Below, one piece after another: positions 24,537-64,000 of a DNA stretch of 64,000 nt. Location: the NCBI GenBank assembly GCA_001029735.1, contig CP011213.1, forward strand, positions 460,613 to 524,612. The letters are read 5' to 3'. Within the stretch, counting starts at the first letter, position 1. Each line of letters starts with the position of its first letter. The DNA comes from Berkelbacteria bacterium GW2011_GWE1_39_12. Its GTDB lineage: Bacteria; Patescibacteriota; UBA1384; UBA12157. Position numbers and translations under genes: made by a program. Under the pieces are notes generated by a model. The model made no database searches. It was not told where the DNA came from and saw only the letters and a program-made list of their open reading frames with translations.

Positions 24537-24546
24537 AAAGACCAAA

Positions 24547-25767
24547 TTGGCCTTTAAAACTGGAGGTTTTTTGCTTTTCGAATACACAGCAGCCGGACAA
24601 GACGGCACAATCAGGAAAAGTCAGATGGAAGCGACCGATAAAGACGCGGTTATTTCATATTTAAAAAGAAAAGATTTTTTAGTTATCCGTGTGGCAGAAA
24701 AAGCTGAAGATATTGGTCAGGTCTTTGCCGGCAAAGTGACGGCGTTAGAAAAGATTGATTTAACTGGTAACTTGTCGATTATGTTAAAAGCCGGTGTTGG
24801 GATGCCTGAAGCCTTGGAAATTATCTCCAAAGACTCGAAAAATCCCTATTTTGAAAAAGTCTGCTCATCTTTAAAATCCAATTTGGAAAATGGCCGGCCA
24901 CTATCAGTTGGTTTAAAGCATTATCCCAAAGATTTTAGTAACGTATTTATTAGTCTGATTAAAGCCGGCGAAGCTTCAGGAAAATTGGAACAGGTTTTAG
25001 CTCAATTAAGCCAACAGTTAAAAAAAGAACATAGCTTGGTGACAAAAATTCGAAGCGCCTTTGCCTATCCTGTAGTGCTGGTTTGCGGCTTAATCGCAGT
25101 GGTGATTCTTTTAATGACTTTTGTCTTACCAAAGCTTGTCACATTGTTTTCTGATTCAAATTTAAAATTGCCATTAGGTACTCGTATTGTTTTTGATATA
25201 TCTCAAGCGCTGTCGGCTAGACCGATTTTTACGCTTATCGGAGTAATTTTATTAACAATAATAATTCTGTTTTTAGCGCGTAACCAAAAAATCAAAGCCT
25301 TTTCTTTGCGAACGGTTTATCATTTACCGGTTGCATCACAGCTAATTGCTCAAATGGAATTGGCTCGATTTTCCAGAACTTTATCGAGCCTGATGCAAAG
25401 TGGTGTGCCAATTGTCCAGGCATTGGAGATTACTGCGGAAGCACTTAGTCTGCCTCAGTATAAAAAAATGGTACTAGACGCCAAAGAAGACATCGCCAAA
25501 GGCGTATCTTTAACCAATGCTTTTAAAAAGAACGAAAAAATTTTCCCACAAATGCTGGTTTCCGTCATGCAGGTTGGAGAAAAAACGGGAAATTTAGATA
25601 AGCTTTTATTAAGTATCGGTGATTATTTTGAAGAACAAGTTGATAACACTTTAAGTGTTTTAACAAGTTTGGTCGAGCCAGTGTTACTGGTTGTTGTCGG
25701 AGTAGCGATTGGTGGGATGGCGATTTCTATAATCTTGCCAATCTATCAGCTAATCGGAAGTTTTTAA
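24547..25767 (+). CDS. pilC: type IV pilus platform protein PilC (GspF family)
   Basis: Two GspF repeats, 3 TM segments, 406 aa. Confidence 0.85.
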   Translation: MAFKTGGFLLFEYTAAGQDGTIRKSQMEATDKDAVISYLKRKDFLVIRVAEKAEDIGQVFAGKVTALEKIDLTGNLSIMLKAGVGMPEALEIISKDSKNPYFEKVCSSLKSNLENGRPLSVGLKHYPKDFSNVFISLIKAGEASGKLEQVLAQLSQQLKKEHSLVTKIRSAFAYPVVLVCGLIAVVILLMTFVLPKLVTLFSDSNLKLPLGTRIVFDISQALSARPIFTLIGVILLTIIILFLARNQKIKAFSLRTVYHLPVASQLIAQMELARFSRTLSSLMQSGVPIVQALEITAEALSLPQYKKMVLDAKEDIAKGVSLTNAFKKNEKIFPQMLVSVMQVGEKTGNLDKLLLSIGDYFEEQVDNTLSVLTSLVEPVLLVVVGVAIGGMAISIILPIYQLIGSF

Positions 25768-25769
25768 AT

Positions 25770-26294
25770 ATGGCGAAAAATATGGCCTTTCGGGCGCGGA
25801 ATTTCAATCGAAATATAGCCCTTGGGACGCAGAATTTCCGAAGAAATATTAAATCATCGAAGGGTTTTACCCTAATCGAGATTTTGGTAGTGATGGCGAT
25901 TTTAGTTGTAATGGCCGGTTTTTCTGTTGCGAGCTTAACCTCCTTCGGCCGAAGTAGTAATATTGATGGCGATTACATGACGCTAGAATCGTCTTTAAGA
26001 CTGGCCGAAAGTAATTCACAAGCCAACTTAGGTGACAGCCAATGGGGAATTCACCTAGAAAGTAATCGGTTCACGCTTTTTAGCGGATCGACTTATAATG
26101 CTTCTGATATTGCCAATAATAAAGTAAGAACATTTTCTAACGGCGTTGTATTAAGTTGGAGCCTCGCTGACGGTGGTCAAGACATTTTGTTCAACAAAGG
26201 CAAAACCTCCACTATTAATACTGGTACGCTTACTCTTTCGGGTAGTGGCAATAGCAAGCAACTTACATTGAATGGTGAGGGCACAATTGAATAA
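25770..26294 (+). CDS. pseudopilin with unusually long (about 39 aa) leader before G-FTLIEILVV
   Basis: Prepilin motif KGFTLIEILVVMAIL. Confidence 0.65.
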   Translation: MAKNMAFRARNFNRNIALGTQNFRRNIKSSKGFTLIEILVVMAILVVMAGFSVASLTSFGRSSNIDGDYMTLESSLRLAESNSQANLGDSQWGIHLESNRFTLFSGSTYNASDIANNKVRTFSNGVVLSWSLADGGQDILFNKGKTSTINTGTLTLSGSGNSKQLTLNGEGTIE

Positions 26295-28254: not shown

Positions 28255-28283
28255 TTTGCCGCAAATTATTCCTGGAAAAAAAC

Positions 28284-28784
28284 ATGAAAAACAAATTTTT
28301 TACAAAAAGACGGGGCGTAACACTAATGGAGCTGATTATTTACATCGGTGTGATGTCAATTGTGATTGTGGCCATTACGGATTTGGCTGGTCGCCTGGTT
28401 TTTGCGCAAAAGAAAAATAACGCTTCTACTGAAATAAATGAGACATCAAACCTTATTTCAGGTAAACTAAACAGCGATATTGCCAATGCAACTGCAGTGA
28501 ATGGCATATTTCCTTCCAACACTTTAATTTTAACTGTCGACGGTCATCAACTTCAGTATGATTTATCCGACAATAATTTAAGTCTTAAAACAGATAGCGG
28601 TGAAGCGGTTAAATTAAATTCGAGTCGCATCAAAATTCAGCCAGTCGTTCCTAGCACAATGATTTTTAATAAAGCAGAGAATGGTTCGGCAAATTCCGTT
28701 AGCTATAAAATGAATTTTACTTTGTTAACCGGTTCTGGCATAGGAAATACTGTGCAGACGACGATTTTGATGAGGGCAAAATGA
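28284..28784 (+). CDS. pseudopilin
   Basis: MKNKFFTKRRGVTLMELIIYIGVMSIVIVAI; internal ATG preferred over the ORF-track start. Confidence 0.65.
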   Translation: MKNKFFTKRRGVTLMELIIYIGVMSIVIVAITDLAGRLVFAQKKNNASTEINETSNLISGKLNSDIANATAVNGIFPSNTLILTVDGHQLQYDLSDNNLSLKTDSGEAVKLNSSRIKIQPVVPSTMIFNKAENGSANSVSYKMNFTLLTGSGIGNTVQTTILMRAK

Positions 28785-29188
28785 AAATAAATCCAAGACA
28801 AAAAGGCCAAGCTTTATTAATCGGTATTTTAATTATTTTTACTGCTGCGATTTCTTTGGCAGTGGCCTCCGGCGTAATTGCTTCAAACCAGGTTTCAGTG
28901 AGCCAAAATCAGAAACTGTCAGCCCAGGCTTCGAACTTGGCTCATACCTGTCTAGATAACGGTTTAATGAATTTCAGCCGTGGCAATTTTACTGCGCCGG
29001 CTCAATTGAATAGTAATGGTGGAACTTGTACAATAAATATAAGCGGTAGTAGTCCAATATACCAAGTGACATCCACCGCTGAGTTTAATTTAGCGATATT
29101 CAATAAAAAAGTTACCAGAAAAATAGAGGCGACAGTTACAACCGTTGGTGGTTTAACAAGAGTCACATCTTTGCAGGAAATATATTAA
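28781..29188 (+). CDS. pilin-like hypothetical protein
   Basis: N-terminal GQALLIGILIIFTAAISLAVA hydrophobic segment in pilin position. Confidence 0.4.
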   Translation: MKINPRQKGQALLIGILIIFTAAISLAVASGVIASNQVSVSQNQKLSAQASNLAHTCLDNGLMNFSRGNFTAPAQLNSNGGTCTINISGSSPIYQVTSTAEFNLAIFNKKVTRKIEATVTTVGGLTRVTSLQEIY

Positions 29189-29289
29189 GTCCTACTCCGC
29201 TAAAGCTACGCAGGACACACTTCGCTCATAGTTAGAGTGAGGCTTGCCAGCGTAGCCCGAAGCGAAGACGAGGGCGAAGTGTGGAGGGG
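29189..29289 (+). promoter_or_regulatory. conserved leader element, copy C, ending GGAGGGG 3 nt before the pilM GTG
   Basis: The 3' 40 nt and central GGACACACTTCGCTC are identical to copies A and B; the 5' arm has diverged. Confidence 0.6.
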
Positions 29290-29291
29290 CA

Positions 29292-30677
29292 GTGCAGATT
29301 TCGGGACTTCAAATTAGCGGAACTCGAGTTTCTTTGCTTACCTTGAAAAAACAGGGCGATGCTTTGCATGTCCTTTCTTTTGCTACGCTCGAATTAAAAG
29401 ACGGTATTATTGAAAACGGTATTTTAAAAAATCCGAGAGAACTAACCACGGCTTTAATTGCTTTAAAAAAGATGGGTAAGCCTAAAAAAATTGGCAGCAA
29501 CTATGTGGTTGTGGGTTTACCGGAGGAATTAGTTTACTTAACCGTTAAGCCTTTTCCTTCAATTGAAGAAGACGATATCAGAGATGCTTTAGAACTTAAC
29601 TTAAGGGAGTTCATGCCCGGCGATTCAGAAAAAATCTTTTGGGGTTTTCAGAGTATCAAAACCAAAGAAAATGCTGAAGTTCTCTTGGCCTCGGTTAATC
29701 ATGAAGCCTTAACCGCATATCTCAGCGTGTTTGCAAATGCCAAACTCACACCAGTGGCGGTTGAGCCATCGTCCCTGGCTTCGGCCCGCGCTTTTAAAGA
29801 AATCAGCCCATCGTTATTAGTTGATATCGATAAAAAAAATGTATTGGTTGCAGCTTTTAGCGATAAGATTGTTCGTTATAGTAACGGTTTTCCATTTGAT
29901 GGTGAGAATCTGGCTTTGACAATCAAAAAGATAATAGGTTTTTATAAATCAAAGAGAGAACTTGAATCGGTAGACATTATAATTTCCGGACGTGTGTCGG
30001 CAGACGAAATTTCCAAGCTCAATAAATATACCGGTGAAAATGTTTTAGCTGCCAAAGAAAAATTAATTTTTAAAAACGGAGAGGTTAGTTCGCCAGTCGT
30101 CCTAGGCTTAGCAATGAGAGGCTTGTTAGAGCAGAAAGACGATGAAAATCTTTCCTTATTACCCCTTGGGACAGCCGAAGGATATGAGGAAAAGAAGGCT
30201 CTGTATTCTGTTGGTGCCATCGCCAACCTTACTACCGTTGTCAGTATTCTCTTTATTGCTATTTTTATTGGCTTTATTGTCCTTTTAAATTATTTGAGTT
30301 ATTCGTCTGATCAGCAACTTTCGACTTTAAGTAGTCAAAAGATTGATCCGCAAACTACTGAAGCCCAAAAAAAGTTGGCGGCTTTGGAGCCAAAAGTTTC
30401 CTATATTAAAACTATTTCCAAGGGAGTTTCGCCCATTGGCGATAAAATTCAAGGAGTCACTTCTGCTGCTCCCGATGGAATAAATTTAAAAAGTGTAACG
30501 ATGGCCAAGGACACTTCGACTATCCAAGCGGTAGGTACTGCTCAGGATCGTGATACTTTGGGTGTCTTTAAAGATGGGTTAATAGAGAACAAGCTTTTTT
30601 CTAAAGTCGATCTTATCTCGACGAGCGTGACTGATACCTCGGTTGATTTCACCATTAACATAGCCATAAAGAAATAA
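29292..30677 (+). CDS. pilM: PilM-PilN fusion (actin-like ATPase domain + TM + periplasmic PilN-like domain)
   Basis: PilM-type N-terminus, then TM helix LTTVVSILFIAIFIGFIVLL and a C-terminal periplasmic region; GTG start. Confidence 0.7.
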   Translation: MQISGLQISGTRVSLLTLKKQGDALHVLSFATLELKDGIIENGILKNPRELTTALIALKKMGKPKKIGSNYVVVGLPEELVYLTVKPFPSIEEDDIRDALELNLREFMPGDSEKIFWGFQSIKTKENAEVLLASVNHEALTAYLSVFANAKLTPVAVEPSSLASARAFKEISPSLLVDIDKKNVLVAAFSDKIVRYSNGFPFDGENLALTIKKIIGFYKSKRELESVDIIISGRVSADEISKLNKYTGENVLAAKEKLIFKNGEVSSPVVLGLAMRGLLEQKDDENLSLLPLGTAEGYEEKKALYSVGAIANLTTVVSILFIAIFIGFIVLLNYLSYSSDQQLSTLSSQKIDPQTTEAQKKLAALEPKVSYIKTISKGVSPIGDKIQGVTSAAPDGINLKSVTMAKDTSTIQAVGTAQDRDTLGVFKDGLIENKLFSKVDLISTSVTDTSVDFTINIAIKK

Positions 30678-30678
30678 A

Positions 30679-31272
30679 ATGCAAGAAAAAAAATTACAAA
30701 TTATCGAAGACCCTAAGGTAACGATTCGAAAGGCAGTTCGTAAGACTACTGTAATTTCTCTATCGGTCATCATTATAACGATTGCCGCTATTTTTTTTCT
30801 TGTCAAAGAAATTAATAAGAAAACTTTAGCCATACAGACTAAGCAAAATTTGATTTATTCGACAAATCAAAAAGCCAATGCCAGTGCCGAATTGATGCGC
30901 CAATGGTTAGAGATTGCGCCGAATATGGAAAAAATCAACAATTCCTTACCGGCAGCCAGTAACTTATTGGATTATATGGGTGAATTAGAGAAGATTGCAT
31001 CTGAAGTCGGCGTGAGTCAGAATGTCAAAATTCAATCGGTACCTACCAATGGTGTGGTAGTAGGTTCGGTTGTACCTAAAGGCGCGAGTGTGGAATATAC
31101 TATTGAATTAAAAGGTGATTTCAACCAGTTCGATGATTACTTGTCGCGGCTGGAGAATGCGCCTTTCTACACTCAAATTACGGCTGTAAATTACATCGGT
31201 CCGGATTCGACGAGTAAAACATCAATTGGTTCTGCTACTATTGGCGCTAAGGTTTACACGTTTGGTAACTAA
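30679..31272 (+). CDS. PilO-like bitopic membrane protein
   Basis: Single N-terminal TM plus periplasmic domain, located after pilM/N. Confidence 0.45.
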   Translation: MQEKKLQIIEDPKVTIRKAVRKTTVISLSVIIITIAAIFFLVKEINKKTLAIQTKQNLIYSTNQKANASAELMRQWLEIAPNMEKINNSLPAASNLLDYMGELEKIASEVGVSQNVKIQSVPTNGVVVGSVVPKGASVEYTIELKGDFNQFDDYLSRLENAPFYTQITAVNYIGPDSTSKTSIGSATIGAKVYTFGN

Positions 31273-42354: not shown

Positions 42355-44073
42355 TTGGACGAAATTGAGCAAATTAAACAGCGAATTGATATTGTCGAAC
42401 TTATTTCAAGTTATTTGACAGTCAAAAAAGCAGGTACGAGCTATCGTAGCTTATGTCCTTTTCATAATGAAAAAACCCCATCAATGATGATCTCGCCAGA
42501 ACGACAAACTTTCAAGTGTTTTGGCTGTAACGAAGGCGGCGATATTTTTGAGTTTGTGATGAAAATGGAAAATTTAAGTTTTCGTGAAGCACTGGAAATG
42601 TTAGCTCAACGAGCCGGTGTGAAGCTCGAGCGCTATAAGCCAAAGAATTCCGAACAGGAAGCGAACAACTCAAATAAAAAAACGCGGCTTTTTCAAATTA
42701 ACGCTTTGTCGGCACAGGTCTTTCACAAAATTTTAATGACCCACTCATCAGCCGAACAAGCCAGAGCTTATTTAAAAAAGCGAAAATTAACCGAACAAAC
42801 ACAAAAAGATTTTTTGATTGGTTATGCACCTTCGTCTCGAGCTTTAAAATCTTTTTTGTTAAAAAGAGGCTTCACGGAAGCTGAAATTCAAGAAGCGGGA
42901 AGTCCGGATCGATTTTATAAAAGAATTATGTTTCCAATTACCGATGTGATGGGTAATGTTCTAGGCTTTACTGGTCGGGTCTTGGAAGCCGATATCCAGC
43001 CAAAATACCTGAATACTCCGGAAACAGTCATTTTTCATAAGGGTCGAATTCTATACAACTTGGTTCGTGCTCGCGGCGAAATCAAAATGAAGAAAGAAAC
43101 TGTTGTGGTTGAAGGCCAGATGGATGTGATTTCGTCTTATCAAGCCGGAGTTCAGAATGTGGTGGCAACTTCCGGTACTGCCCTAACTGAAGATCACCTA
43201 CAAATTCTTTACCGTTATACGCCAAATATTTCTTTTGCTTTTGACGCTGATAGCGCAGGTTTATCGACGGCCAAAAAGGCCTATGAAATGGCCATCGTTC
43301 AAGGTTTTAATGTTAAAATGGTGGAAATAAAGGATTTTAAGGATCCTGGAGAAATGATCGAAAAGGATCCTGACCTTTGGATACAAACTGTTGAAAAGGC
43401 TAAGCCAGTCATAAATTGGTTTTTTGACTTAGCTTTTTCTAAAAAAGACGAACTCACTTCGGTCGACAAAAAAGAAATAGCTAAAGAACTGCTACCAATT
43501 ATTAAAAAGATTCCTGATTCGATAGAGCAGGCTCATTTTGTAGAAATTTTAGCAAAAAAATTAATGCTGCCAGACAAAATCATATTCGAAGCTTTGAACC
43601 GAGTTGCCGGTAAAACTGAAAAAACCTCCAAAAAACCCCAAGAAAGCGAATATTATAAGACAACAATGGAAGAAGTTTTGATTGGCATTTTGGCTTCGAA
43701 AAAAGAAATTTTGGAAGAAATATTGCCAATTGTGTCGATTGATGATTTTGATAATATTTGGTGTAAAACAGTTTACAGTACCCTTTTAAACTGGTATAAT
43801 AATAGTAGAAAAACTGACGATTTAGGAAAATTTCTAACTTCGCATCTCAAACCTCAAGAATATAAAAAGCTTGAGTTGATTTTGATGGAAGTAGAAAAAG
43901 ACTATGCTGAAGAGTCTCTGCCGGCAGCGAAAGATATCGCTTCAAGAATTAAAGAAAACCGGCGTGAAAAATTAAAAGATAAATTTGCTAAAGAAATTGG
44001 TCAAGCCGAAGAAAAAGGCGATAAAGAGAAATTAAAAGAACTAATCAAGGAGTTTCAAGATGCCATCAAATAA
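42355..44073 (+). CDS. dnaG: DNA primase DnaG
   Basis: Zinc ribbon [10 protein letters not shown]...C.GC, TOPRIM domain (EGQMD, DAD). Confidence 0.9.
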
Positions 44074-45259
44074 AAAAAATGATATTGACGTTGCTAGAGC
44101 TAGTCGTGATCGTAATAAAATCGCTCATGATGAAAAAGTTGAACTAAAAGCAGCTAAGAAAAAAGGTAGAATTAAGAAAAAAGAGGAAGTCAAAGTTAAC
44201 TTTCCTGAAGGCATTCAAAACTTGATTGCCAAGGGTCATGAACATGGCTTCGTCACCTTTCAAGAAATAATGCAGGCTTTTAACGAACCAGAAAAAAATC
44301 TGGCTTTGCTTGACGCTCTCTATGAAGAATTTTTAGAACAGGGTATAGATGTCACCCAAGGTAAAAAATTACTTGATGTTCCGGGTGAAGAGGGCGCTGC
44401 AGCAAAAGCCGTTTCCGAACTTAAAGATATTTCTGACGATTCGGTTCGTATGTATTTGCGTGAAATCGGCCGGATTCCATTACTTACTACGGAAGAAGAA
44501 ATTAAGCTCGCCAAAAGAATTGAGGCCGGTGATGAAAACGCTAAACGAAAATTAGCTGAAGCCAACCTTCGTCTAGTCGTTTCAATTGCTAAAAAATATA
44601 TTGGTCGGGGATTAACCTTGTTGGATTTAATCCAAGAAGGAAATACTGGCTTGCTTCGTGCTGTGGAAAAATTCGATTACCATAAAGGATATAAATTTTC
44701 GACGTATGCGACTTGGTGGATTCGTCAGGCTATTACTCGCGCTATTGCTGACCAGGCCAGAACCATTCGTATCCCAGTTCACATGGTTGAAACAATTAAT
44801 AAATTGATTCGTGTTCAACGTCAATTGGTCCAAGACCTTGGTCGTGAACCATTACCTGAAGAAATTGCTTCTGAAATGGGTATTCCGGTTGATAAAGTTG
44901 AGCATATCATTAAAATCTCTCAAGAAACTGTTTCACTGGAAGCACCTGTTGGCGAAGAAGAAGATTCGAAGTTGGGTGATTTCATTGAAGATAAAATTTC
45001 TTTATCTCCTGAAGAGAATGCCATTTATCAATTGATGAAAGGCCATGTTGGCGAATCATTGAACTTTCTTGCCCCAAGAGAACAAAAAATTCTTAAAATG
45101 CGTTTCGGTTTAGATGAAACCGGTCGCACTCATACACTCGAAGAAGTTGGCAAGGAATTTGGTGTGACGCGTGAACGTATCAGACAGATCGAAGCCAAGG
45201 CTTTGCAGAAAATGAAAAAGCACGAGCAGTCTCAAAAGCTTAAAGATTATTTAAAATAA
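44060..45259 (+). CDS. rpoD: RNA polymerase sigma-70 factor RpoD
   Basis: Regions 1.2, 2 ([10 protein letters not shown]...[10 protein letters not shown]), 3 and 4; follows dnaG as in the classic operon. Confidence 0.9.
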
Positions 45260-52361: not shown

Positions 52362-53303
52362 GTGAGAAAATTTGTTAAAGTTTCGGTGATAGCCATATTG
52401 GCTATATCATCTTTTCTTGTTTTGGCAGGACCAACTACCGCGTTTGCAGCAACGGCAACAACACCAGTTTTGGGAAAGACTCTTACGTTTGGTATTCTTT
52501 CTAGCACCTACACCAATACTGCTGTCGGAACTACTATTAACGGAGATCTTGGATATACTACCGGACCCGCAGTACTACCTACGATAAATGGCACGAAATA
52601 TGTAGCCGAATCAACTTACAATCAAGCAGGGTTAGATCAGGCCACTGCTTTGGCTGAACTTAATAGTCAATCGGCTACATTTACCTTTGCACCAGGGGCA
52701 ATTGATCTTGCCAGTGATACTACACATGGTGCAATTGGCGTCTATACACCTGGAGTGTATTCGATAACTGGCGCGGCAAACATTGGCGGAGGGGGAACAA
52801 TTACTTTAAATGGCGCGGGGACATATATCTTTAGAATGGATGGCGCACTTAACACATCAGCTGACTCTAAGGTTATATATATTAATGGCGCATCACCTTG
52901 CGATATTTTCTGGACGCCGACCCAAGCCACCACGCTTGGTGCTAACTCTACATTTGTAGGAACTGATATTGACGCCTCGGGAATTACTATTGGTAGCACT
53001 GTAACATGGACGGGAAGAGCATTGGCTTTTGGTGGAACAGTTTCGACTGCTGCAGACACTATCACCGTACCTGATTGTGCGGCTACAGAAACATCTGCAG
53101 TAGCTACACTAGCCGCCGCAGATGCCGCTGCCGCAGCTACACTAGCCGCCGAAAATGCCGCAAATGCCGCCGCTGCCGCTAAATTGCCGAATACCGGAGT
53201 TGGTCAAACTCAAAATAGTATGCCTTGGATTATCGTTATACCAGTTGGTATTTTTGCAGTCGCGATCTTGCTCTGTATTATCCGCAGAAAAGAAACAGCT
53301 TAA
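52362..53303 (+). CDS. LPXTG-anchored surface protein (LPNTG), Thr/Gly/Ala-rich, possibly beta-helical
   Basis: Signal peptide, C-terminal KLPNTG + hydrophobic segment + RRKE. Confidence 0.65.
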   Translation: MRKFVKVSVIAILAISSFLVLAGPTTAFAATATTPVLGKTLTFGILSSTYTNTAVGTTINGDLGYTTGPAVLPTINGTKYVAESTYNQAGLDQATALAELNSQSATFTFAPGAIDLASDTTHGAIGVYTPGVYSITGAANIGGGGTITLNGAGTYIFRMDGALNTSADSKVIYINGASPCDIFWTPTQATTLGANSTFVGTDIDASGITIGSTVTWTGRALAFGGTVSTAADTITVPDCAATETSAVATLAAADAAAAATLAAENAANAAAAAKLPNTGVGQTQNSMPWIIVIPVGIFAVAILLCIIRRKETA

Positions 53304-53385
53304 TATAATCACAAAGAATAATTGCTAAACAAAAGCCAGACAAGAGTTGGTTTGGCTTTTGTGGTTATAAACTTTTGAGGTGTTT

Positions 53386-54015
53386 ATGCAACCGAAAATT
53401 TCATTAGGACAAACACCATTAATAGCCGTTATTATAGGGTTTGTACTTTCTTTGACAATTCTTTTCTGTTTTGTTCCTAAAAATACAATTCAAAGTAGTT
53501 CGACACCATTTATTAATGAAAATAAACCTGTAAAAACCATTATCAATCCCGATCAAGAAAAAGTGAATTACGGATTGCCAATGCGCCTTAAAATTCCAGA
53601 AATTAATGTTGATGCTACTATTGATAATGCGGGTCTTACTCCCGATGGAACCATGGAGTCGCCGAAAAGTCCAAGTGGCGTGGTATGGTATAAACTTGGG
53701 GCACGGCCCGGGGAAATTGGCAGTGCTGTTATCGCTGGACATTACGGGACATGGAAAAATGGTGAGAAGTCGGTGTTTGATGATTTATCAAAATTAAACC
53801 CAGGCGATAAAATATATATAGAAGATGATATGGGAAAAACAACTACTTTCGTTTTAAAAAATAGCCAAAGTTATGATCCGAGTGCAGACGCTTCAGGTGT
53901 ATTTAACTCAAATGACGGGAAATCTCATCTTAATCTTGTTACCTGTGAAGGAATTTGGAATCCAATTTCTCAAAGCTATAGCAAGCGTCTAGTGATGTTT
54001 GCTGATAAGGAATAA
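53386..54015 (+). CDS. sortase family transpeptidase
   Basis: IAGHYGT (His), LVTCEG (TLxTC Cys), N-terminal TM anchor. Confidence 0.7.
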   Translation: MQPKISLGQTPLIAVIIGFVLSLTILFCFVPKNTIQSSSTPFINENKPVKTIINPDQEKVNYGLPMRLKIPEINVDATIDNAGLTPDGTMESPKSPSGVVWYKLGARPGEIGSAVIAGHYGTWKNGEKSVFDDLSKLNPGDKIYIEDDMGKTTTFVLKNSQSYDPSADASGVFNSNDGKSHLNLVTCEGIWNPISQSYSKRLVMFADKE

Positions 54016-54313
54016 ATAGGTTATTTCTTGGACCATATTTAGTTGTGATCAAATTATTGATTACCGTTTATTATATTACTGGTAGTACCGCCACTTTTAT
54101 TTCAACCTATCCCCAGTTATTATAATCGCTCAAATAACTTATAAATTTCTAAGAGTTATTTTTAAAAAAATTCGAGCATCTTCAATCAGGCGGAGCCAAG
54201 TTATAAAAAAGACGCAAACGGTTGCCGTCCTTTTTGTTTTTATACTTTATGATTAATGAAAATGAAAAAGGACACTCGAAATACAAGTGTCCTGCTTAAA
54301 AAAGGTTACGGGT

Positions 54314-54904
54314 TTATCTTGCTGGCTCAAACCAGAATCCGCTCCACCAGCAAGGTTCAACATTAACATCGTAGTCGGAAAGTAGGACCCAGCCAAGATC
54401 TGAATAAACCGCGGGGTGGTGACTGTATCTTTCAACAACGATTCTTTGGTGGTGTAATATTGGTACCGGGCCAAATAAATCGGGGTCAACAGTTTCAACC
54501 TTGAATACTTGCAGATATTTTCCTGGCAATATTCTACTATGCAAATCCTGTGTCGAACCATATTCCGACGATACAGTCGCTAGCTGTACATGCTCTCTCT
54601 CGAAAAAAGTGTGATTGTAAAGCTGGGATCGATAGTGCTCTGCACGACGTAGTACTGTTTCGATTGGCATATCAGTCTTACCTGCACGGATCATACGAAA
54701 CAATTCATGACCAGCTTGCATGATTGAATCTCTTGATGGCCGATCTGATGCCTCGGGCGAAAAGAACAATTCATCCGAAACCCATTTCGACATCACTTCA
54801 TTGGCTCTCTTTCGGTCAATAATGTTCCCATTTTGGCCAAACCAAAGGCAGATGTCGGTAACGAGCGAGGCAAATCGTCCAAGACTATCCATATCAGTAT
54901 TCAT
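54314..54904 (-). CDS. hypothetical protein (196 aa)
   Basis: ORF only; Trp-rich C-terminus. Confidence 0.3.
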   Translation of the reverse strand: MNTDMDSLGRFASLVTDICLWFGQNGNIIDRKRANEVMSKWVSDELFFSPEASDRPSRDSIMQAGHELFRMIRAGKTDMPIETVLRRAEHYRSQLYNHTFFEREHVQLATVSSEYGSTQDLHSRILPGKYLQVFKVETVDPDLFGPVPILHHQRIVVERYSHHPAVYSDLGWVLLSDYDVNVEPCWWSGFWFEPAR

Positions 54905-55020
54905 TCAAGAACCCCCTCAAAGATAATTTGTCAAGTTTGTTGCTGCTGCCAATATAGCATAAAAATACTGGTATATCAAGATTATTTTGTGTTTGTTTTT
55001 TATTACTGCCTGATAAATTT

Positions 55021-55542
55021 TTATTTGAGCGGATATTCCACTTTCTCGTTCTTGATTTGTGCAAAGGGTGTCATCAAATGAGGCTTAGCCGATTTTTCAG
55101 TAAAAATATCAATCACCTCGAAATTATGAACTAACAAAGCATCCCCAATCAGTGATCTGTGGCAGCGCCATGGAACAGCTTCGGCACACATGATCGCAGT
55201 ATCGTTTTTTTCTGCAATCTTAAGCAATCCTTTTAAGTTTTCCTCAAGCTCGGTTGTTTGCATATAATCGGCAAAACCGCGAAACGAGGCATTTCTCCAG
55301 GCTGTGTTAACTGAGTTTCTGGCGACATGACGAAAACCGCCGAGACCAGCCATATGAATATAGTGAATTCCATAATCAGTTAAATTTTTTTCTAAAATAT
55401 TCTCATTGAATTGTGGATTGTGCAGGGATCTCGTAATTGTCCGCACATCGACAACGATTTCAATATCATAAAATTTCAAAAGTTGGATAAATTCTGTTAT
55501 GGGATGAGTAGAATGCCCAACTGTGTAAATTTTTTTAACCAT
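55021..55542 (-). CDS. DUF488 family protein
   Basis: MVKKIYTVGHSTH N-terminus typical of DUF488; ATG at 55542 with GGGGTA RBS preferred over the longer ORF. Confidence 0.55.
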   Translation of the reverse strand: MVKKIYTVGHSTHPITEFIQLLKFYDIEIVVDVRTITRSLHNPQFNENILEKNLTDYGIHYIHMAGLGGFRHVARNSVNTAWRNASFRGFADYMQTTELEENLKGLLKIAEKNDTAIMCAEAVPWRCHRSLIGDALLVHNFEVIDIFTEKSAKPHLMTPFAQIKNEKVEYPLK

Positions 55543-55848
55543 CAGGTATACCCCAATCAAAATATTTTTACTTAAAAGTATAAAACATCTCAAGAAACAT
55601 TTATATGGTTTTTTATCTATAGCACTGACAAAGCAAAAATTATTAATAGCAAATATTCGAGCATCTTCAATCAGACGGAGCCAATCCACAGCGCGGATGG
55701 CGGATGCAATCGGCGCCAACCGACAAAGTCGGTCTTTAAATTGTCTTTTATTTTTGCTGAGCGTATATTTAAATCAACCGTCGAGTTATAGCTTGTCTAC
55801 GTTGCGAAGCTTAAAGCACATATTGCAGTTTCAAAGGAGGCGAGAGAT

Positions 55849-56166
55849 GTGTCTAGGTGGAGAAAAGCCAAAGACAAGCGCGCGATCCAGATTGGTGGAT
55901 ATCTTTGTGAGGTTTGCGGTCTTCAGTTAACAAGACGAGATATTGTCGGCCACCATAAGAGATTTCGCTGTTATGGTGGAGAAGACACTGTCGAAAATTG
56001 TATGCTGAAATGCCAAAGGTGTGAACAACTATTTGACCATGTTCCTCAAAACTCTGAAGGGTTTGAAGGTGATCATAATGCTCGGCGAAGGGACAGAAGA
56101 AATACGGTTGATATTCCATGTCAGCAGCCTTATGTGTCCAGCATGCAAATCGGTTGCCCTTGCTAG
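55849..56166 (+). CDS. HNH endonuclease (stand-alone)
   Basis: CEVCG...HH........N....C..C HNH-type pattern; 105 aa. Confidence 0.55.
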   Translation: MSRWRKAKDKRAIQIGGYLCEVCGLQLTRRDIVGHHKRFRCYGGEDTVENCMLKCQRCEQLFDHVPQNSEGFEGDHNARRRDRRNTVDIPCQQPYVSSMQIGCPC

Positions 56167-56380
56167 CTTGAAAAACGCTTCCGCAATACTAGACCGGGAA
56201 AAGATACTGGAAGTAATATCGTGCTAGCTGTTTCTGAAAAACCGGGCTACTTTAAGATCGGAGGCTAAATCGGATTCTAGTCCAACAATCCATTTCACCT
56301 AAGCCGGGTACCCGGCTTTTTTAAGCAGATGGATAAATAGGTGATTGGCAATATCTTACTATTAATGTCTAAGAAAATAA

Positions 56381-56962
56381 TTAATTAGGCTTTGCGATAA
56401 CGATTAGCCTTTTGTCAATTGTTCCAATTGGCCAGCAAGTCATTAGGGTTAATTGTTCAGATTCTGTTGGTTTTAAAACACTTACATCATTAGGACTTAC
56501 TATTTTTTTATCGGTCACTTTGTAGATGTACTCTTTTTGTTGCCACCAAACTGAAATTAGGTCGTCATCGTCTAAATCATTCAATTTGGCAAATATTGTC
56601 TTATATTCGCCAGGGTCCCACAAATAATAGGAAGAATGTCCAAAAATAAAAATATTACTCTTTTCGCCCGGATTTGCCGTGCCGGCAAACTGAGCGACGC
56701 CATTTTCTAGCGCTGAATCATATATCTCTTTATTTTTTCCGTCAACATTAGCAATAACGGGAGCTGAAATATTTAGTTTTGTAATCTCTAAATGGAAATC
56801 CTTGAATTTTGCTTGTGGTGTTGGGTTATTTGTCTCTAATTGACTTGAGTTATCCGTTGTGTTTACATTTTTTCTACTATTTATGCCAACGATGCCAACC
56901 AAAACAAGAAAAATGATGATTAAAAGCGTTTTAATTAAAATTTTTTTATTAATTTTTTTCAT
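56381..56962 (-). CDS. sortase family transpeptidase
   Basis: IFGHSS (His) and LTLMTCWP (Cys) motifs, N-terminal TM. Confidence 0.65.
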   Translation of the reverse strand: MKKINKKILIKTLLIIIFLVLVGIVGINSRKNVNTTDNSSQLETNNPTPQAKFKDFHLEITKLNISAPVIANVDGKNKEIYDSALENGVAQFAGTANPGEKSNIFIFGHSSYYLWDPGEYKTIFAKLNDLDDDDLISVWWQQKEYIYKVTDKKIVSPNDVSVLKPTESEQLTLMTCWPIGTIDKRLIVIAKPN

Positions 56963-57169
56963 AGGGTAATAATACATCCGTTGTGTCCTCGTGTTCTTGT
57001 TTAATTAGCCAATATTTTACATTTTTTATTGCTGAAATGGTTAAATCGAACAATTTAATCACTTCTTTATTATGATAATTTGTTATTAGTAAGAGAAAAG
57101 AAGTTTGTGACCGAATTTTCTCAATGGTTGGTCGATATAAACTTTCTAAAAATTAACGGGAGAAAATCA

Positions 57170-57901
57170 ATGAAAAAAGTATTTAATTATTCACTTAGCT
57201 TAATCGGTTTGGCTCTTTTAATTTCAGCAGTTTTTATCGGTGGTGTGGACAACACTTTTGCTCATACCGACACTAGTCCGTCAGTCACAATAGTTAATTC
57301 ACCGACGGGAGAAGTAACGCCTGGTGATGTTATAACTTATACTATTGATGCAAATAGTTTAGGCTTAAGTAACTCCGGTGTCTTGACTGCAACTTGGAAT
57401 GATCCTGACAATGTATCAACTTACGTTGATGGCTCTGCATCCGAAGGTTCAGAAGTTGATTTGGCTAACCATAAAATTACTTGGAATTTGATCAATATGG
57501 TGGATGAACCACAAGTTCTTTCTTTCCAATTAATGATGAATAGCGACAATCCAATAGATGGAACTTTTACCGTGGAAGTTTCTTCCTCAGCAGACTTTAT
57601 GGATGATGGCAATTCATTTGATTTTGGTAGTGGTAGCTGTGATATCTGCGGCAGTTGTGATATTTGCGGTAGCTGTGATATTTGCGCCAGTTGCGAATCA
57701 TGTAATTGCGATACCTGTGTCGGTCCAACAGAAAAAGTAATAACCAGTAATACTGTTGCTAATACTGTGACTTATGTTACTGAACAGCCCGAAGAAGAAG
57801 ATGAAGAAGAAGAGGTGTTAGGGATTGAAGAAAGTGCTCTACCTCTTACCGGTGCAGACACGTCTTATTTGAACGGAATTTTCAGCTTAATAAAATTTTG
57901 A
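57170..57901 (+). CDS. LPXTG-anchored surface protein (LPLTG) with (G)SCDICG Cys repeats
   Basis: Signal peptide; SGSCDICGSCDICGSCDICASCESCNCDTC block; acidic EEEDEEEE; C-terminal LPLTG + hydrophobic tail. Confidence 0.6.
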   Translation: MKKVFNYSLSLIGLALLISAVFIGGVDNTFAHTDTSPSVTIVNSPTGEVTPGDVITYTIDANSLGLSNSGVLTATWNDPDNVSTYVDGSASEGSEVDLANHKITWNLINMVDEPQVLSFQLMMNSDNPIDGTFTVEVSSSADFMDDGNSFDFGSGSCDICGSCDICGSCDICASCESCNCDTCVGPTEKVITSNTVANTVTYVTEQPEEEDEEEEVLGIEESALPLTGADTSYLNGIFSLIKF

Positions 57902-58770: not shown

Positions 58771-59054
58771 ATTGACGGTCGTTATCTAAACTATATAAAA
58801 ACGGTCGGAGATTGCATCAAAGGCCGTTTTTGTGATTTAAAACGATGAATTAATATTTACAGCTACTATGATTGAACTATGATCACTTTGCTGGTTATTT
58901 ACCTCGTTTCTTTATTTGCTTATATTACTTTCTTTTACTATGTCATCAAAAGAGTTTATGAATTAAAATTAACAAATGATAAAATTGAAAAAATTATAAA
59001 TTTTTTTATAGCAACAAGTGCAATCTTAATCTGTCTTAGTTTCTTTTTACTAAT

Positions 59055-59801
59055 ATGAAAAGTCTATTTAATATTCCCGGTGTCGATGAAAAAGAAATTA
59101 TACTGATGGTACGTAAGCATTGGATTACTGCCGTTTTAAGTATTGTCTATGGTTTATTTAGTTTAGTTGTATTTATTTTCTTGTTAAGATATCTGGCTCT
59201 GATCCAAGTGGGAATCTTTGCTTGGAGATTAACAATCGTGATTTTAACGATATATTTGCTTGTTACTTTATTATACATCTTCAATGATATTGTTAAATAT
59301 TATTATGATGTCTTAGTTCTAACAAAAGAAAAAATTATTAAAGTGGATCAAAAGAATCTGATATCAAGATTAATTTTTGAAATAGAATCGAAAAAAGTTT
59401 TAAACGTTAGCTCTGTCTATCCAACGTTCATTCACGCTTTATTTAAATTCGGAAATACAGTAATCGAGCTAGAGCATGAAACAATCACATTCTTTTTTGT
59501 TCCAAATCCTGTCAGGATATCGAAGGCAATTGCGGAGATCAATAAAATGAAGAAAGAATTGGGTTTAAAGCCCGGTAATAATGTTACAGAGTTTTCTACA
59601 AAGGAGGATGAAATGGTTGCCATTAGTGGATTAGAAAAAATAGATAAAAAAGATCAAGGTGAAGGAAAAACTACAGAGGATCTTTTGAAAGCCCAAACAG
59701 AGTTAGCTGCCAAAGAATTGCTAAAACAACGGTCGTCAACTAATAAAAAACCAAAATCTTGGATCGAGATCATTTTCGAAGAAATTTTTGGTCGATTTTG
59801 A
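59055..59801 (+). CDS. hypothetical membrane protein
   Basis: Two N-terminal TM helices; 248 aa. Confidence 0.35.
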   Translation: MKSLFNIPGVDEKEIILMVRKHWITAVLSIVYGLFSLVVFIFLLRYLALIQVGIFAWRLTIVILTIYLLVTLLYIFNDIVKYYYDVLVLTKEKIIKVDQKNLISRLIFEIESKKVLNVSSVYPTFIHALFKFGNTVIELEHETITFFFVPNPVRISKAIAEINKMKKELGLKPGNNVTEFSTKEDEMVAISGLEKIDKKDQGEGKTTEDLLKAQTELAAKELLKQRSSTNKKPKSWIEIIFEEIFGRF

Positions 59802-59853: not shown

Positions 59854-62013
59854 ATGGAAAAAATAGATCTTAAATTAGCTTTTCTTTCTACTTATCCGCC
59901 AAGCCGTTGTGGGATTGCAACGTTTGCTTCTTCACTAATAGAAAATTTAGAGCATTATTTAAATAGTCAGATAAAAATTATAGCGGTGAGTGATCTTAAA
60001 CAAGCATATCCACCTCAGGTTATCTTTGAAATTAATCAAAATCAAAAACAGTCATATTTTGAGGCTGCTAAGATGATAAATACTAGCAGTATTGAAGTCG
60101 TAATTCTCCAGCACGAATATGGTATTTTTGGTGGAGAAGATGGCGAATATATTTTAAATTTTTTAGAAAATATTAATAAGCCAATTGTGACAAGCTTACA
60201 CTCGGTACTACATGTACATAGTACTCATCGAAAATTACTAACTCAAAAGATCTTAAATCTTTCCAATTCGGTAGTCGTCATGACGAAGGCAGCAAAAAAA
60301 ATTCTATTGGAAACTATGGATATTCAGGCAGAAAAAATTTTTGTCGTGCCTCACGGAGTACCAAATGTTCGCTTTGATGAGAAAGATAAAATCAAGGATT
60401 TTTTAGGCTTAGATAATAAGAAAGTTGTGAGCACTTTTGGATTATTGAATAGAGGCAAGGGGATTGAATTGGCAATTTCTTCTGTGTCGGAATTAGTTTC
60501 AACATATCCAGATATTTTGTATTTAATTATCGGAGTAACACACCCTAAAATATTAGAAAAAGAAGGTGAGCAATATCGCAGATCATTAATGCGACAAGTT
60601 AAGGAAATGAAGTTAACAAATAATGTTCGTTTTATCGATAGCTATTTAGATTATTATGATTTAGTTTGTTATTTAAAAGCGACTGATGTTTACCTTGCTC
60701 CGCAGTTAGATTTAAATCAAGCTTTTTCAGGAACAATTTCTTATGCGCTAGGTTGTGGATGCGTTGTTGTTTCGTCACCCACATCGTATGCAAAGGAAGT
60801 GCTTTCTGATGGACGGGGAGTTATAGTTGAACCAAAAAGCGAAAAAATCAGTAACGAGCTCAAAAAAATATTCACGTCAGAGGATTCGATTAAAAAAACT
60901 GCTCTTAAAAGTTATCGATATGCTCGTTCTATGACTTGGCACCAGGTTGGTTTGAAATATTTAGATGTAATAGAGAAAAATCTTTTTATAAACAATGATG
61001 GTTGGGCACAGCGACTGCCAAATTTTAAATCGCCCCCTCCTTTAAATCACTTATTAAACAATACTACTGACTTTGGATTATATCAGCATATGATAGGAAG
61101 CACTCCAAACATCGAGTTTGGTTACAGCTTAGACGATCAAGCAAGAGCCTTAATTGCATGCCATGAATTGTCCTATAATTTTACCGATTTAAAAGTAGAA
61201 AAATATAAAAAAGTTTACTTGAGTTTTTTAGATAACGCTATTGATAACAAAGGTCGAATTCACAATTTTTTTAGTGATGCGCAAAAATATATTGATAAAA
61301 ATGCCTCTGCAGATTCAATAGCGCGAAGTTTTTGGGCATTAAGTTGTTGCAAGGAAGATAGCAGATATAAAATTAAAACAAATAAAATACTTAGTATTTA
61401 TCAGAATAAATTAAATTTTGATCATGTAAAACCTATTTCGTACTCTTTGCTCGGTTATACTAACCTAAAGAATAAAGAGATGACTATATTGCTAGCAGAC
61501 AAATTAATCGAAAGATTTAGTCAAACCAGCAATAAATCCTGGCAATGGTTCGAAGATGAGCTTACTTGGGCAAATGCAATAGTTATTTTATCTCTTTGCA
61601 AGGCTTATAAATTGACAAAAAACAGCATCTATCTGAGCACGGCATTAAAATCTTTAAAGTTTTTAGAAAAGCATTCTATTGTATCGGGATATCCTGCACC
61701 GATTGGTCAAAAAAAATGGTACAAGAGAAACAAGTGTCGAAGTTTGTTTGACCAACAGCCGATCGAAGTAGCAGATATGGTGATGCTTTATAATGAGCTC
61801 TTTTATATTACGGGTGAAAAAAAATACAAAGATAAAGCCTTCTTTTGGTTTGGTTGGTATTTTGGCAATAATATGAATAATGTATTGATCTTTGATCCGA
61901 TCACAAAAGGTGTTTGTGACGGACTTTCCAAAAACGGTGTGAATAAAAACCAAGGAGCTGAATCGATTGTAACTTATTTAATGGCTTACTCGTCATTTAA
62001 TAAGCCCATTTAA
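59854..62013 (+). CDS. glycosyltransferase family 4 domain fused to a C-terminal domain of about 330 aa of unknown function
   Basis: GT4-like Rossmann halves in the first 380 aa or so; no recognisable family for the C-terminus. Confidence 0.6.
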   Translation: MEKIDLKLAFLSTYPPSRCGIATFASSLIENLEHYLNSQIKIIAVSDLKQAYPPQVIFEINQNQKQSYFEAAKMINTSSIEVVILQHEYGIFGGEDGEYILNFLENINKPIVTSLHSVLHVHSTHRKLLTQKILNLSNSVVVMTKAAKKILLETMDIQAEKIFVVPHGVPNVRFDEKDKIKDFLGLDNKKVVSTFGLLNRGKGIELAISSVSELVSTYPDILYLIIGVTHPKILEKEGEQYRRSLMRQVKEMKLTNNVRFIDSYLDYYDLVCYLKATDVYLAPQLDLNQAFSGTISYALGCGCVVVSSPTSYAKEVLSDGRGVIVEPKSEKISNELKKIFTSEDSIKKTALKSYRYARSMTWHQVGLKYLDVIEKNLFINNDGWAQRLPNFKSPPPLNHLLNNTTDFGLYQHMIGSTPNIEFGYSLDDQARALIACHELSYNFTDLKVEKYKKVYLSFLDNAIDNKGRIHNFFSDAQKYIDKNASADSIARSFWALSCCKEDSRYKIKTNKILSIYQNKLNFDHVKPISYSLLGYTNLKNKEMTILLADKLIERFSQTSNKSWQWFEDELTWANAIVILSLCKAYKLTKNSIYLSTALKSLKFLEKHSIVSGYPAPIGQKKWYKRNKCRSLFDQQPIEVADMVMLYNELFYITGEKKYKDKAFFWFGWYFGNNMNNVLIFDPITKGVCDGLSKNGVNKNQGAESIVTYLMAYSSFNKPI

Positions 62014-62045
62014 ATATGTTAGTATATAAAAAAAAAGGAGGTTTT

Positions 62046-62795
62046 ATGGGAAAAAAATTACAAGGCCTGAAGAAGTTTAACCTTTTGATGGCTTTTCTGC
62101 ATTTCGGTCAGGGTGTGGCCATGTTGTTCTTGTCGAGTAATTTTTCACTGCCGGTGAATGCATCGTTTTTAAGTTTCGATTTTTTAACACAAAAGTTGGT
62201 TCCAGAAAACTCTGTTTTGTATGATCTCAGGATTGGCCCAGCAATCGCCGTTTTTTTATTTATTTCCGCATTAGCACATCTTTTGGTTTCGACTGTTCTT
62301 AATAAATGGTATAACGAAAATCTGGCCAAAGGAATTAATTATGCCAGGTGGATTGAATATTCTTTCTCTTCCTCTATTATGATTGTGATTATTGCGATGC
62401 TGGTGGGAGTTTATGACATTGCCGCTTTGATATTGATTTTCACACTTAACGCTATGATGATTTTGTTTGGCTGGATGATGGAACTGCACAATCAGACTAC
62501 TTCAAAAACAAACTGGACATCATTTTATTTTGGATGCATTGCCGGAATCGTTCCGTGGATTGTTATCGCCATATATCTTTTTGGCGCTCACGATAAAGCC
62601 CCTAATTTTGTTTATTGGCTCTACTTTTCCATCTTTTTATTTTTCAATTGTTTTGCAATTAACCAAATCTTGCAATACAAAAAGGTGGGTAAGTGGGCTA
62701 ATTATCTTTACGGCGAACGAGATTACATTATTTTAAGTTTGGTGGCCAAATCACTCCTTGCTTGGCAAGTTTTTGGCGGGACACTCAGGCCTTAA
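62046..62795 (+). CDS. heliorhodopsin
   Basis: Blocks match characterised heliorhodopsins: RWIEYSFSSSIMIVIIA (counterion Glu), MILFGW, FGCIAGIVPWI, QYKKVGKWANYLYGERDYIILSLVAKSLLAWQ (Schiff-base Lys in SLVAKS). Seven hydrophobic helices. Confidence 0.8.
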   Translation: MGKKLQGLKKFNLLMAFLHFGQGVAMLFLSSNFSLPVNASFLSFDFLTQKLVPENSVLYDLRIGPAIAVFLFISALAHLLVSTVLNKWYNENLAKGINYARWIEYSFSSSIMIVIIAMLVGVYDIAALILIFTLNAMMILFGWMMELHNQTTSKTNWTSFYFGCIAGIVPWIVIAIYLFGAHDKAPNFVYWLYFSIFLFFNCFAINQILQYKKVGKWANYLYGERDYIILSLVAKSLLAWQVFGGTLRP

Positions 62796-62816
62796 ATTAT
62801 CTTAAATGTGTAATAT

Positions 62817-62872
62817 GAAAAGCCGTTTTTGCACAAATGACAACGTGCTCTTGCGGCTTTTTTGCGCATAAT
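62817..62872 (+). terminator. rho-independent terminator after the heliorhodopsin gene
   Basis: AAAAGCCG ... CGGCTTTT stem followed by a T-run. Confidence 0.55.
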
Positions 62873-63053
62873 ATATACTTAAATTAAGGTTTAGATGGGT
62901 TAGTAAATCGCCAATTTTGGCGGTAGATGTATTCATTTCTATAAGGTTATATATCAAAAGGAGAGGGTTTATTTTATAGCGGCAGCTTAAAACAAACTTG
63001 TGTTCTTTTTCAGTTGCAGAAAAGTATTACAGAAATTTATGAGGTTATAAATA

Positions 63054-64000
63054 ATGTCTAAAGGAGAGGGTTTATATCCAGCGCCTACACGAAAGCGGAT
63101 CGAAGATCTCGATGCGCAAATTGCTGGTATCCAAAAAGGGACACGAGCCCTTGTTCCCGCTATAATTCCTTTACACGATATCCTAAGACAGAAATTTCGT
63201 TGGTACTACAAATGGACGGCATGGCCAGCCAGTAAGACAATTAACCTATTAGTATTATTTATATATTTAATTGGCGCCTCTTGGTTTGGTGCTCATTTTT
63301 TTATGAATTCAAAAATGGCTAAAGCGGCGACTATCACCACTTTATCTTATGCTACAGGGAATGGCTCAGGCAGTACAGTTACTAATCCGGCTGGTGCAAC
63401 AAGTGATAAAGCAACTTATCTTTCGGCGGCTACAGATTTTGAGGGTCCTAAAACGTCTGGTACAGAAATTGCCACCGCTGATTATTCTAATATTGCTTCT
63501 TCCAATGATGTTAGATATACGACAACTATTGCCCCGATCCTCGGGAAAGCTCCATATCAAATCTTTCGCTTTTACATAGATCCCGCTGTGATCAATAAAA
63601 CTGCTATTACCAGGTTCGTATTCACTCATGAGGGTTATAGTACCAGAGCCACATATCATAGCCGCACTATTACTGTCTTTGGCGGCGTAGCGACCGTGAA
63701 TGAAACAACTAATGTTACCGATACTAATTTAGCCTTATCTTTCGATACAACCTCTCTCAATATAAGTAACTACGTTGATAGTTCGAATTATGTTTATTTT
63801 ATGGTAAAGGGTATTGTTGCTACGCCTGCTGTTGCCTCTACTCTTAATACTGACTATGTGAAGCTTGACGTTACTACAATTGTTCCACCTTCCGCGCCAA
63901 CTATTACTGCTCCAAATGGTGGCGAATCATGGGAACCTGGTAGTATCAATAATGTTATTTGGGATACTGCCGGATCAGGCTTAAAGTACCAAGTTGAAGC
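63054..64000 (+). CDS. large secreted/surface protein, 3'-truncated at the window edge (not in the ORF track)
   Basis: Open frame from ATG 63054 to the window end; N-terminal signal-anchor LLVLFIYLIGASWFGAHFF, then Thr/Ser/Asn-rich extracellular region. Confidence 0.45.
   Translation, partial: MSKGEGLYPAPTRKRIEDLDAQIAGIQKGTRALVPAIIPLHDILRQKFRWYYKWTAWPASKTINLLVLFIYLIGASWFGAHFFMNSKMAKAATITTLSYATGNGSGSTVTNPAGATSDKATYLSAATDFEGPKTSGTEIATADYSNIASSNDVRYTTTIAPILGKAPYQIFRFYIDPAVINKTAITRFVFTHEGYSTRATYHSRTITVFGGVATVNETTNVTDTNLALSFDTTSLNISNYVDSSNYVYFMVKGIVATPAVASTLNTDYVKLDVTTIVPPSAPTITAPNGGESWEPGSINNVIWDTAGSGLKYQVE

Follow-up and report, generated by a model that had tools for sequence, protein, structure and literature searches.

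We analysed a stretch of 64,000 nt of the genome of Berkelbacteria bacterium GW2011_GWE1_39_12 (GCA_001029735.1, contig CP011213.1, positions 460,613 to 524,612 of the forward strand), hereafter called the window. We focus on the open reading frame (ORF) found at 62046-62795 and on the 719-aa enzyme encoded immediately upstream of it, in which a GT4 glycosyltransferase domain is fused to an (alpha/alpha)6-barrel domain. Judged by its sequence, the ORF encodes a canonical heliorhodopsin, with Glu104 as the counterion and Lys235 as the Schiff-base residue. The reading that we favor, and which we hold to be very probable, is that this canonical heliorhodopsin stands in a probable four-gene unit and that its adjacency to the enzyme is a lineage-specific accident of gene order and not a functional pairing. 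The neighboring glycosyltransferase should thus not be used as a clue to the function of the heliorhodopsin.

The identity of the protein had been proposed in a first-pass annotation of the same DNA, and profile matches and structure-based alignments now confirm it. The Pfam Heliorhodopsin profile (PF18761) matches the ORF over all of its positions (1-242 of 242) at 1.9e-103 and with 345.5 bits, for a cut-off of 26.7, and the NCBIfam equivalog NF038020 gives 351.7 bits on the 249-aa protein, for a cut-off of 100. The protein also aligns end to end with heliorhodopsins of the PDB. The closest of them is TaHeR, from a Thermoplasmatales archaeon (6IS6; E = 3.2e-82, 279 bits, with a single one-residue gap), with which it shares the counterion Glu, the Lys of the SxxxK motif, both His residues and the long first extracellular loop; TaHeR differs in that its host is an archaeon, while the host here is a bacterium of the Candidate Phyla Radiation (CPR) and the window protein is known from its sequence only. 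The founding member of the family, 48C12 from freshwater Actinobacteria (6SU3/6UH3), has the same six key residues but is more distant than TaHeR (E = 7.5e-64 for 6SU3), and short indels are found in two of the extracellular loops.

Two sequence blocks, RWIEYS and SLVAKS, had been singled out as carrying the counterion Glu and the Schiff-base Lys; both are present in the protein, and the alignments confirm that the two residues are homologous to those of the characterised proteins. In the alignment with 6SU3, His19, His78, Glu104, Gln207, Ser231 and Lys235 of the window protein correspond to H23, H80, E107, Q213, S237 and K241 of 48C12. Glu104 and Lys235 also align with E108 and K238 of TaHeR, and the column of Glu104 is the exact position at which the entry of the E108D mutant, 7CLJ, departs from 6IS6. 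Ser231 and Lys235 are part of the sequence SLVAK, that is, the SxxxK Schiff-base motif of helix 7. To go by these alignments, the retinal-pocket and counterion residues of the characterised heliorhodopsins are all in place. The hydropathy profile contains seven hydrophobic helices, and the predicted topology has the N-terminus inside, as the first-pass annotation expected: 11 Lys and Arg residues fall in the cytoplasmic segments versus 4 outside, which is the inverted orientation typical of the family. The same heliorhodopsin, in an identical neighborhood, is found in contig DODL01000011.1 of GCA_003509005.1 (Candidatus Berkelbacteria) and in several metagenome assemblies; the identical protein is named heliorhodopsin in UniRef, and its close relatives are named "heliorhodopsin HeR" at NCBI.

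By analogy with its characterised relatives, the protein would be a seven-helix membrane protein with a cytoplasmic N-terminus, binding all-trans-retinal on Lys235 through a Schiff base. As in the bacterial and archaeal heliorhodopsins that have been characterised, it would go through a slow photocycle with no net ion transport, and its role would be that of a light sensor or regulator, not that of an ion pump. From what is known of the family, it would be expected to signal to, or to modulate, cytoplasmic or membrane partners.

The presence of a glycosyltransferase gene next to the heliorhodopsin gene had been regarded as an informative genomic context. We find that it gives no information on what heliorhodopsins do, since the adjacency fails to recur, whichever of the two genes one starts from. 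On the heliorhodopsin side, an alignment of the clade served as the query against GTDB species, each represented by a single genome, and retrieved 80 loci at 57-77% identity, with up to 10 kb of flanking sequence, from Berkelbacteria, Saccharibacteria, Kerfeldbacteria, Dojkabacteria, CPR3, Chloroflexota, Actinomycetota and Thermoplasmata. The enzyme was found within 10 kb of the heliorhodopsin in none of these 80 loci by tblastn, using the whole enzyme and each of its halves (E <= 1e-5), and profile hidden Markov models of both halves retrieved from them only one remote generic GT4, located 7 kb away in a single locus. On the enzyme side, a metagenome scan with an alignment of the C-terminal domain yielded 80 loci, to which a further one (L088) was added, and no heliorhodopsin was found in the flanks of any of the 81. 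These reciprocal surveys lead us to reject a conserved linkage between heliorhodopsin and this glycosyltransferase.

The closest heliorhodopsins found on usable contigs, at 83, 80 and 79% identity, do not have the enzyme beside them either (0/3). The first (L174) is flanked by an unknown protein and by a rubrerythrin, the latter on its 3' side; the second (L172) is followed, on its 3' side, by a TspO gene; the third (L173) has as neighbors an fn3 protein and RpoD/DnaG. In L173, the heliorhodopsin gene directly adjoins those of RpoD and DnaG in convergent orientation, while in the window RpoD/DnaG (42355-45259) are encoded on the same strand as it, some 17 kb upstream, from which it follows that the gene order around the heliorhodopsin is fluid in this clade. 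More generally, the genes found immediately upstream of the heliorhodopsin vary from one locus to another. When the neighbors of the 80 loci were clustered through an all-against-all comparison of their ORFs, the only groups to emerge were generic ABC ATPases (16/80), response regulators and histidine kinases, so the search for any conserved partner of this heliorhodopsin clade gave no candidate beyond generic ABC ATPases and two-component genes. It can be observed that the ABC ATPases, the rubrerythrin and the TspO gene near related heliorhodopsins echo published associations with ABC transporters and oxidative stress.

In a single locus, L087, the enzyme gene is likewise followed, after 33 nt, by that of the heliorhodopsin, with 84% identity for the heliorhodopsin and 63% for the enzyme. 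The giant gene that lies downstream of the heliorhodopsin in the window is also retained there, and since the next gene is kept too, the shared order is best taken as the ordinary synteny of near relatives. Compared with 20 unlinked relatives, the two heliorhodopsins that are linked to the enzyme have no residue in common that would be theirs alone, and we therefore discarded the idea that these two proteins carry a signature of co-adaptation. The composition of the genes adds a further element: the GC content at third codon positions (GC3) is 0.28 in the genes of the enzyme and of the 248-aa protein encoded before it, and 0.42 in the heliorhodopsin gene, in a region where the GC content of the window falls to 0.33 (58-62 kb). 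Such a contrast within a predicted operon may reflect a recent juxtaposition or the codon bias of membrane proteins.

The literature goes in the same direction. A strict operon screen of heliorhodopsins retrieved glutaredoxin, peroxidase and related genes, as well as histidine kinases, and no glycosyltransferase group (PMC8612252). The analysis of 448 heliorhodopsins defined ten recurrent neighbor groups, and none of them is a glycosyltransferase (PMC11109279). Among the publications retrieved as mentioning both protein types, no linkage of heliorhodopsin to glycosyltransferase was apparent from titles and the opening lines of abstracts.

The organization of the locus around the two genes is as follows.

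58794..58833, forward strand: terminator-like hairpin followed by a U-run, 3' of a CAP-domain gene (-20.8 kcal/mol, z = -2.95)
58879..59058, forward strand: 59-aa hydrophobic ORF, present as a gene call in L001/L002, with a 4-nt overlap (ATGA) with the next gene
59055..59801, forward strand: 248-aa protein with a hydrophobic N-terminal region, without significant Pfam/NCBIfam match
59854..60993, forward strand: first domain of the 719-aa protein, a GT4 glycosyltransferase of GT-B type (Pfam Glycos_transf_1)
60994..62013, forward strand: second, C-terminal domain of that protein, a carbohydrate-active (alpha/alpha)6 barrel (stop codon included)
62014..62045, forward strand: A/T-rich spacer of 32 nt, with a Shine-Dalgarno sequence, AAAGGAGG, at 62034-62041 and no hairpin
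62046..62795, forward strand: heliorhodopsin, 249 aa (Pfam, NCBIfam and PDB alignments; predicted topology)
62817..62864, forward strand: intrinsic-terminator-like hairpin with a GCCG/CGGC core and A-tract/U-tract (-25.1 kcal/mol, z = -4.48)
63055..64000, forward strand, running off the window end: N-terminus of a giant fn3 surface protein (PF00041 fn3; gene 11009-20750, forward strand, in L001/L002)

This arrangement points to a probable unit of four genes, which would successively encode the 59-aa peptide, the 248-aa membrane protein, the GT4-(alpha/alpha)6 enzyme and, in last position, the heliorhodopsin. The hairpin at 58794-58833 is probably its upstream boundary. Downstream, the hairpin at 62817-62864 is a strong one, as none of 200 shuffled sequences folds as well; in L087, the fold looked for as a terminator 3' of the heliorhodopsin is not significant (z = -1.39). 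Co-transcription of the enzyme and heliorhodopsin genes is likely, because hairpins bound the unit on both sides and none is found in the spacers that separate its last genes, neither in the 52 nt that precede the enzyme gene, which are unstructured, nor in the 32 nt that follow it, where no stable fold is predicted (z = +0.86). The large surface protein that the first-pass annotation had seen downstream is indeed there: starting at 63055, it is an fn3-repeat protein of more than 3333 aa in the source contig, with a hydrophobic stretch near its N-terminus. Its gene starts 259 nt past the heliorhodopsin stop codon and, being located beyond the terminator-like hairpin, it probably forms a separate transcription unit. 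As for the 248-aa protein, it was not found at the other heliorhodopsin loci; L088 contains a weakly homologous protein (24% over 166 aa, E ~1e-5), encoded 7 kb downstream of its homologue of the enzyme.

The two genes had moreover been described as translationally coupled across 30 nt devoid of terminator. The absence of a terminator stands, but the length of the spacer has to be corrected, as the enzyme stop codon ends at 62013 and the heliorhodopsin ATG is at 62046, which leaves 32 nt. Coupling, for its part, is unsupported, because the heliorhodopsin has a strong Shine-Dalgarno sequence of its own (AAAGGAGG), from which it would be translated, and because the gap is unremarkable: the 55 pairs of same-strand neighbors of the window are separated by a median of 34 nt, and 47% of them by 32 nt or less. 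The stop and start codons of the two genes neither overlap nor abut. There is a further in-frame ATG at 62016, which one database entry takes as the start, and a gene beginning there would be separated from the enzyme by 2 nt and would be truly coupled to it. We rejected it as the true start, since its L087 counterpart is not in frame and since it overlaps the Shine-Dalgarno sequence, which is conserved. In L087, the Shine-Dalgarno sequence and the ATG matching 62046 are kept, while the remainder of the spacer has diverged and includes an indel. The equivalent of the ATG at 62016 being out of frame in that locus, and the Shine-Dalgarno and downstream ATG being conserved, we took 62046 as the start.

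The heliorhodopsin gene could also be transcribed alone, from a promoter within either the spacer or the 3' end of the enzyme gene, and the two genes would then simply be neighbors. Both of these stretches are A/T-rich, with -10-like sequences (TATATA/TAGTAT) at 62020-62029 and a weak promoter-like match at 61854-61881; the Shine-Dalgarno sequence of the heliorhodopsin is strong, when nothing resembling one was spotted ahead of the enzyme ATG, and the difference in GC3 between the two genes would also fit with separate transcription. However, promoter-like matches are no more frequent in this region than in shuffled sequence (18 found for 22.2 expected), a -10 box at 62020-62029 would leave next to no leader before the Shine-Dalgarno sequence, and the spacer is not conserved in L087 apart from that sequence. 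We thus consider an independent promoter unlikely.

The second alternative gives the adjacency a function: in the light, the cytoplasmic loops of the heliorhodopsin would bind one of the other products of the unit, either the GT4-(alpha/alpha)6 enzyme or else the 248-aa membrane protein, and modulate it. The heliorhodopsin would then be a "helper" rhodopsin, and glycan metabolism would be placed under the control of light. Several observations have to be set against our own reading here. The two genes are on the same strand, separated by 32 nt with no detectable terminator and probably co-transcribed, and their order is kept in L087 even though the enzyme has drifted to 63% identity. There is also precedent, since some heliorhodopsins do bind and modulate the products of adjacent genes in a lineage-specific way, namely a glutamine synthetase, a photolyase and an ABC transporter (PMC9529153, PMC9769723, PMC11109279). 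As these published partnerships are lineage-specific, the non-recurrence of a neighbor is not by itself enough to dismiss a local one. Finally, retinal binding, topology and co-transcription are all predictions made from sequence, and the check for retinal and carotenoid genes covered the 64-kb window.

Against such a modulation stand the reciprocal surveys (0/80, 0/81 and 0/3), the retention in L087 of the giant gene as well, which makes the conserved order an ordinary case of synteny, and the fact that the two linked heliorhodopsins have no derived residues in common. Furthermore, the conserved partner of the enzyme family, a GH130 phosphorylase, is absent from the window, and glycosyltransferases are outside the ten recurrent neighbor groups established on 448 heliorhodopsins (PMC11109279). 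Nothing besides the adjacency speaks for this modulation, and we find it quite improbable. Very doubtful too is its evolutionary counterpart, namely that the heliorhodopsin was recruited in this Berkelbacteria lineage to modulate, depending on light, either the co-transcribed enzyme or the 248-aa membrane protein; if true, glycan or mannoside metabolism would join the few processes known to be regulated by heliorhodopsins, and this in an episymbiont that has to borrow its retinal. A lineage-specific accident of gene order, within a genome that is compact, is thus the explanation that we retain for the adjacency.

The comparison with the characterised pairs illustrates the same point. In AbHeR/glutamine synthetase, TfHeR/photolyase and OcHeR/OmrDE ABC transporter, the partner is, as here, encoded by an adjoining gene on the same strand after a short spacer, and it was this layout that led to their being studied (PMC9529153, PMC9769723, PMC11109279). 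Their partners, however, recur in several organisms, whereas the window enzyme was associated with a heliorhodopsin in 0/164 surveyed loci outside one near relative.

None of the Pfam families of Blh/BCD, CrtB, CrtI and CrtY (lycopene cyclase) is on record for the called genes of the 64-kb window, in agreement with the earlier remark that no retinal-synthesis gene is visible nearby. Retinal is probably scavenged from neighboring organisms, to judge from the window. A supply from outside is a reasonable idea, and one that has already been published for CPR rhodopsins and TaHeR (PMC9296517): dependence on outside retinal has been argued for the former, and TaHeR is used by organisms without a retinal pathway, the retinal entering through an opening in the apoprotein (PMC9296517). 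The window protein shares many features with the heliorhodopsins and type-1 rhodopsins described in CPR bacteria by Chiriac et al. 2022 (PMC9166423) and Jaffe et al. 2022 (PMC9296517), which are also found in Patescibacteria hosts with small genomes, have the SLVAK sequence, lack retinal-synthesis genes nearby and are proposed to rely on the retinal of others. SLVAK is in fact the commonest motif in CPR heliorhodopsins (PMC9166423). These surveys differ from the present case in dealing mainly with Saccharimonadia, and a text search of PMC9166423 retrieves no mention of Berkelbacteria. It was thus already known that CPR bacteria have heliorhodopsins, that retinal synthesis is lacking there and that the gene neighborhoods vary, and the window protein itself is recognised in public databases.

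The enzyme deserves to be considered on its own. The first-pass annotation had described a GT4 domain fused to a C-terminal domain of about 330 aa, and this description proved right. On the forward-strand ORF 59854-62013 (719 aa), Pfam Glycos_transf_1 matches aa 177-348 with 58.2 bits, for a cut-off of 26.4, while the NCBIfam GT4 matches remain below threshold. The last ~340 aa have no Pfam match above threshold (C5-epim_C is found, but only below it). The GT4 domain departs from the classical motif of its family of retaining GT-B enzymes, as the EX7E of the C-terminal Rossmann domain is replaced by QX7Y (NQAFSGTISYALG). This replacement is family-wide, and the Q, SGT and YA columns are nearly invariant in an alignment of 44 sequences; by comparison, a classical GT4 neighbor taken from the loci of the enzyme family reads EPFGLSVAE. 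The C-terminal domain has the fold of an (alpha/alpha)6 toroid, like the carbohydrate-active enzymes of the AGE/cellobiose 2-epimerase, GH9 and GH76 families and their relatives, with an invariant DD pair (GYSLDDQAR) and D253/Q254/D309. Its identity to solved structures does not exceed 18%, and its best match, YPO2471 (7TEM), is itself without an assigned function.

Full-length homologues (about 720-750 aa) with 37-63% identity to the enzyme are widespread among Patescibacteria and DPANN archaea (Woesearchaeota, Pacearchaeota, Nanoarchaeota), and in about 12 loci the two halves of the fusion are encoded by separate adjacent genes. A GH130 phosphorylase (Pfam 3.3e-45) neighbors the enzyme in 55/82 loci of the family, at a median distance of ~900 bp. 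In L088, for instance, the cluster has the order GalP_UDP_transf - APH - GH130 - fusion enzyme - APH - GT4 - GT4 - S6PP, the last of these being a faint match. No GH130 is found among the called genes of the window. The association nevertheless recalls the mannoside clusters in which a GT4 is encoded together with a GH130 beta-mannoside phosphorylase, such as that of Thermoanaerobacter sp. X-514 (PMC4264767). The window enzyme differs from these systems in having its GT4 fused to an (alpha/alpha)6 barrel, in its QX7Y in place of EX7E and in the absence of GH130 nearby.

Since GH130 is the recurrent neighbor, the family context suggests that cytoplasmic metabolism of mannosides or oligosaccharides is a likelier role for these enzymes than synthesis of the cell envelope. 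The enzyme had been presented as a cell-envelope glycosyltransferase. We abandoned this role as unsupported, the context being made of GH130 and of Pfam families of sugar metabolism. Inspection by eye, with no predictor run, revealed no signal peptide or N-terminal hydrophobic stretch in the 719-aa protein, which on this basis appears to be a soluble, two-domain carbohydrate enzyme. We know of no characterised member of the GT4-(alpha/alpha)6 fusion family. With its altered GT4 motif and its GH130 partner, this module may merit a separate study.

The rest of the window contains genes that are typical of Patescibacteria, with housekeeping functions (PNPase, RNase J, FtsK, RecA, PPDK, DnaG, RpoD), a two-component cluster, type IV pilus genes, and sortases with their likely substrates. 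The region 16860-31272 encodes a HisKA kinase, three consecutive single-domain response regulators, a GAF/PAS histidine kinase and then a fourth response regulator, which is followed by a cluster resembling those of type IV pili and type II secretion systems (N_methyl pilin, T2SSE, T2SSF, PilM). Closer to the heliorhodopsin, a cluster of surface-protein genes occupies 52362-57901, with an Ice_binding-domain protein (52362-53303) and two sortases, one on the forward strand (53380-54015) and one on the reverse strand (56381-56977). It ends with a 273-aa protein (57080-57901) that carries cysteine-rich CDICGS repeats, an acidic stretch and, near its C-terminus, a motif resembling an LPLTG sorting signal.

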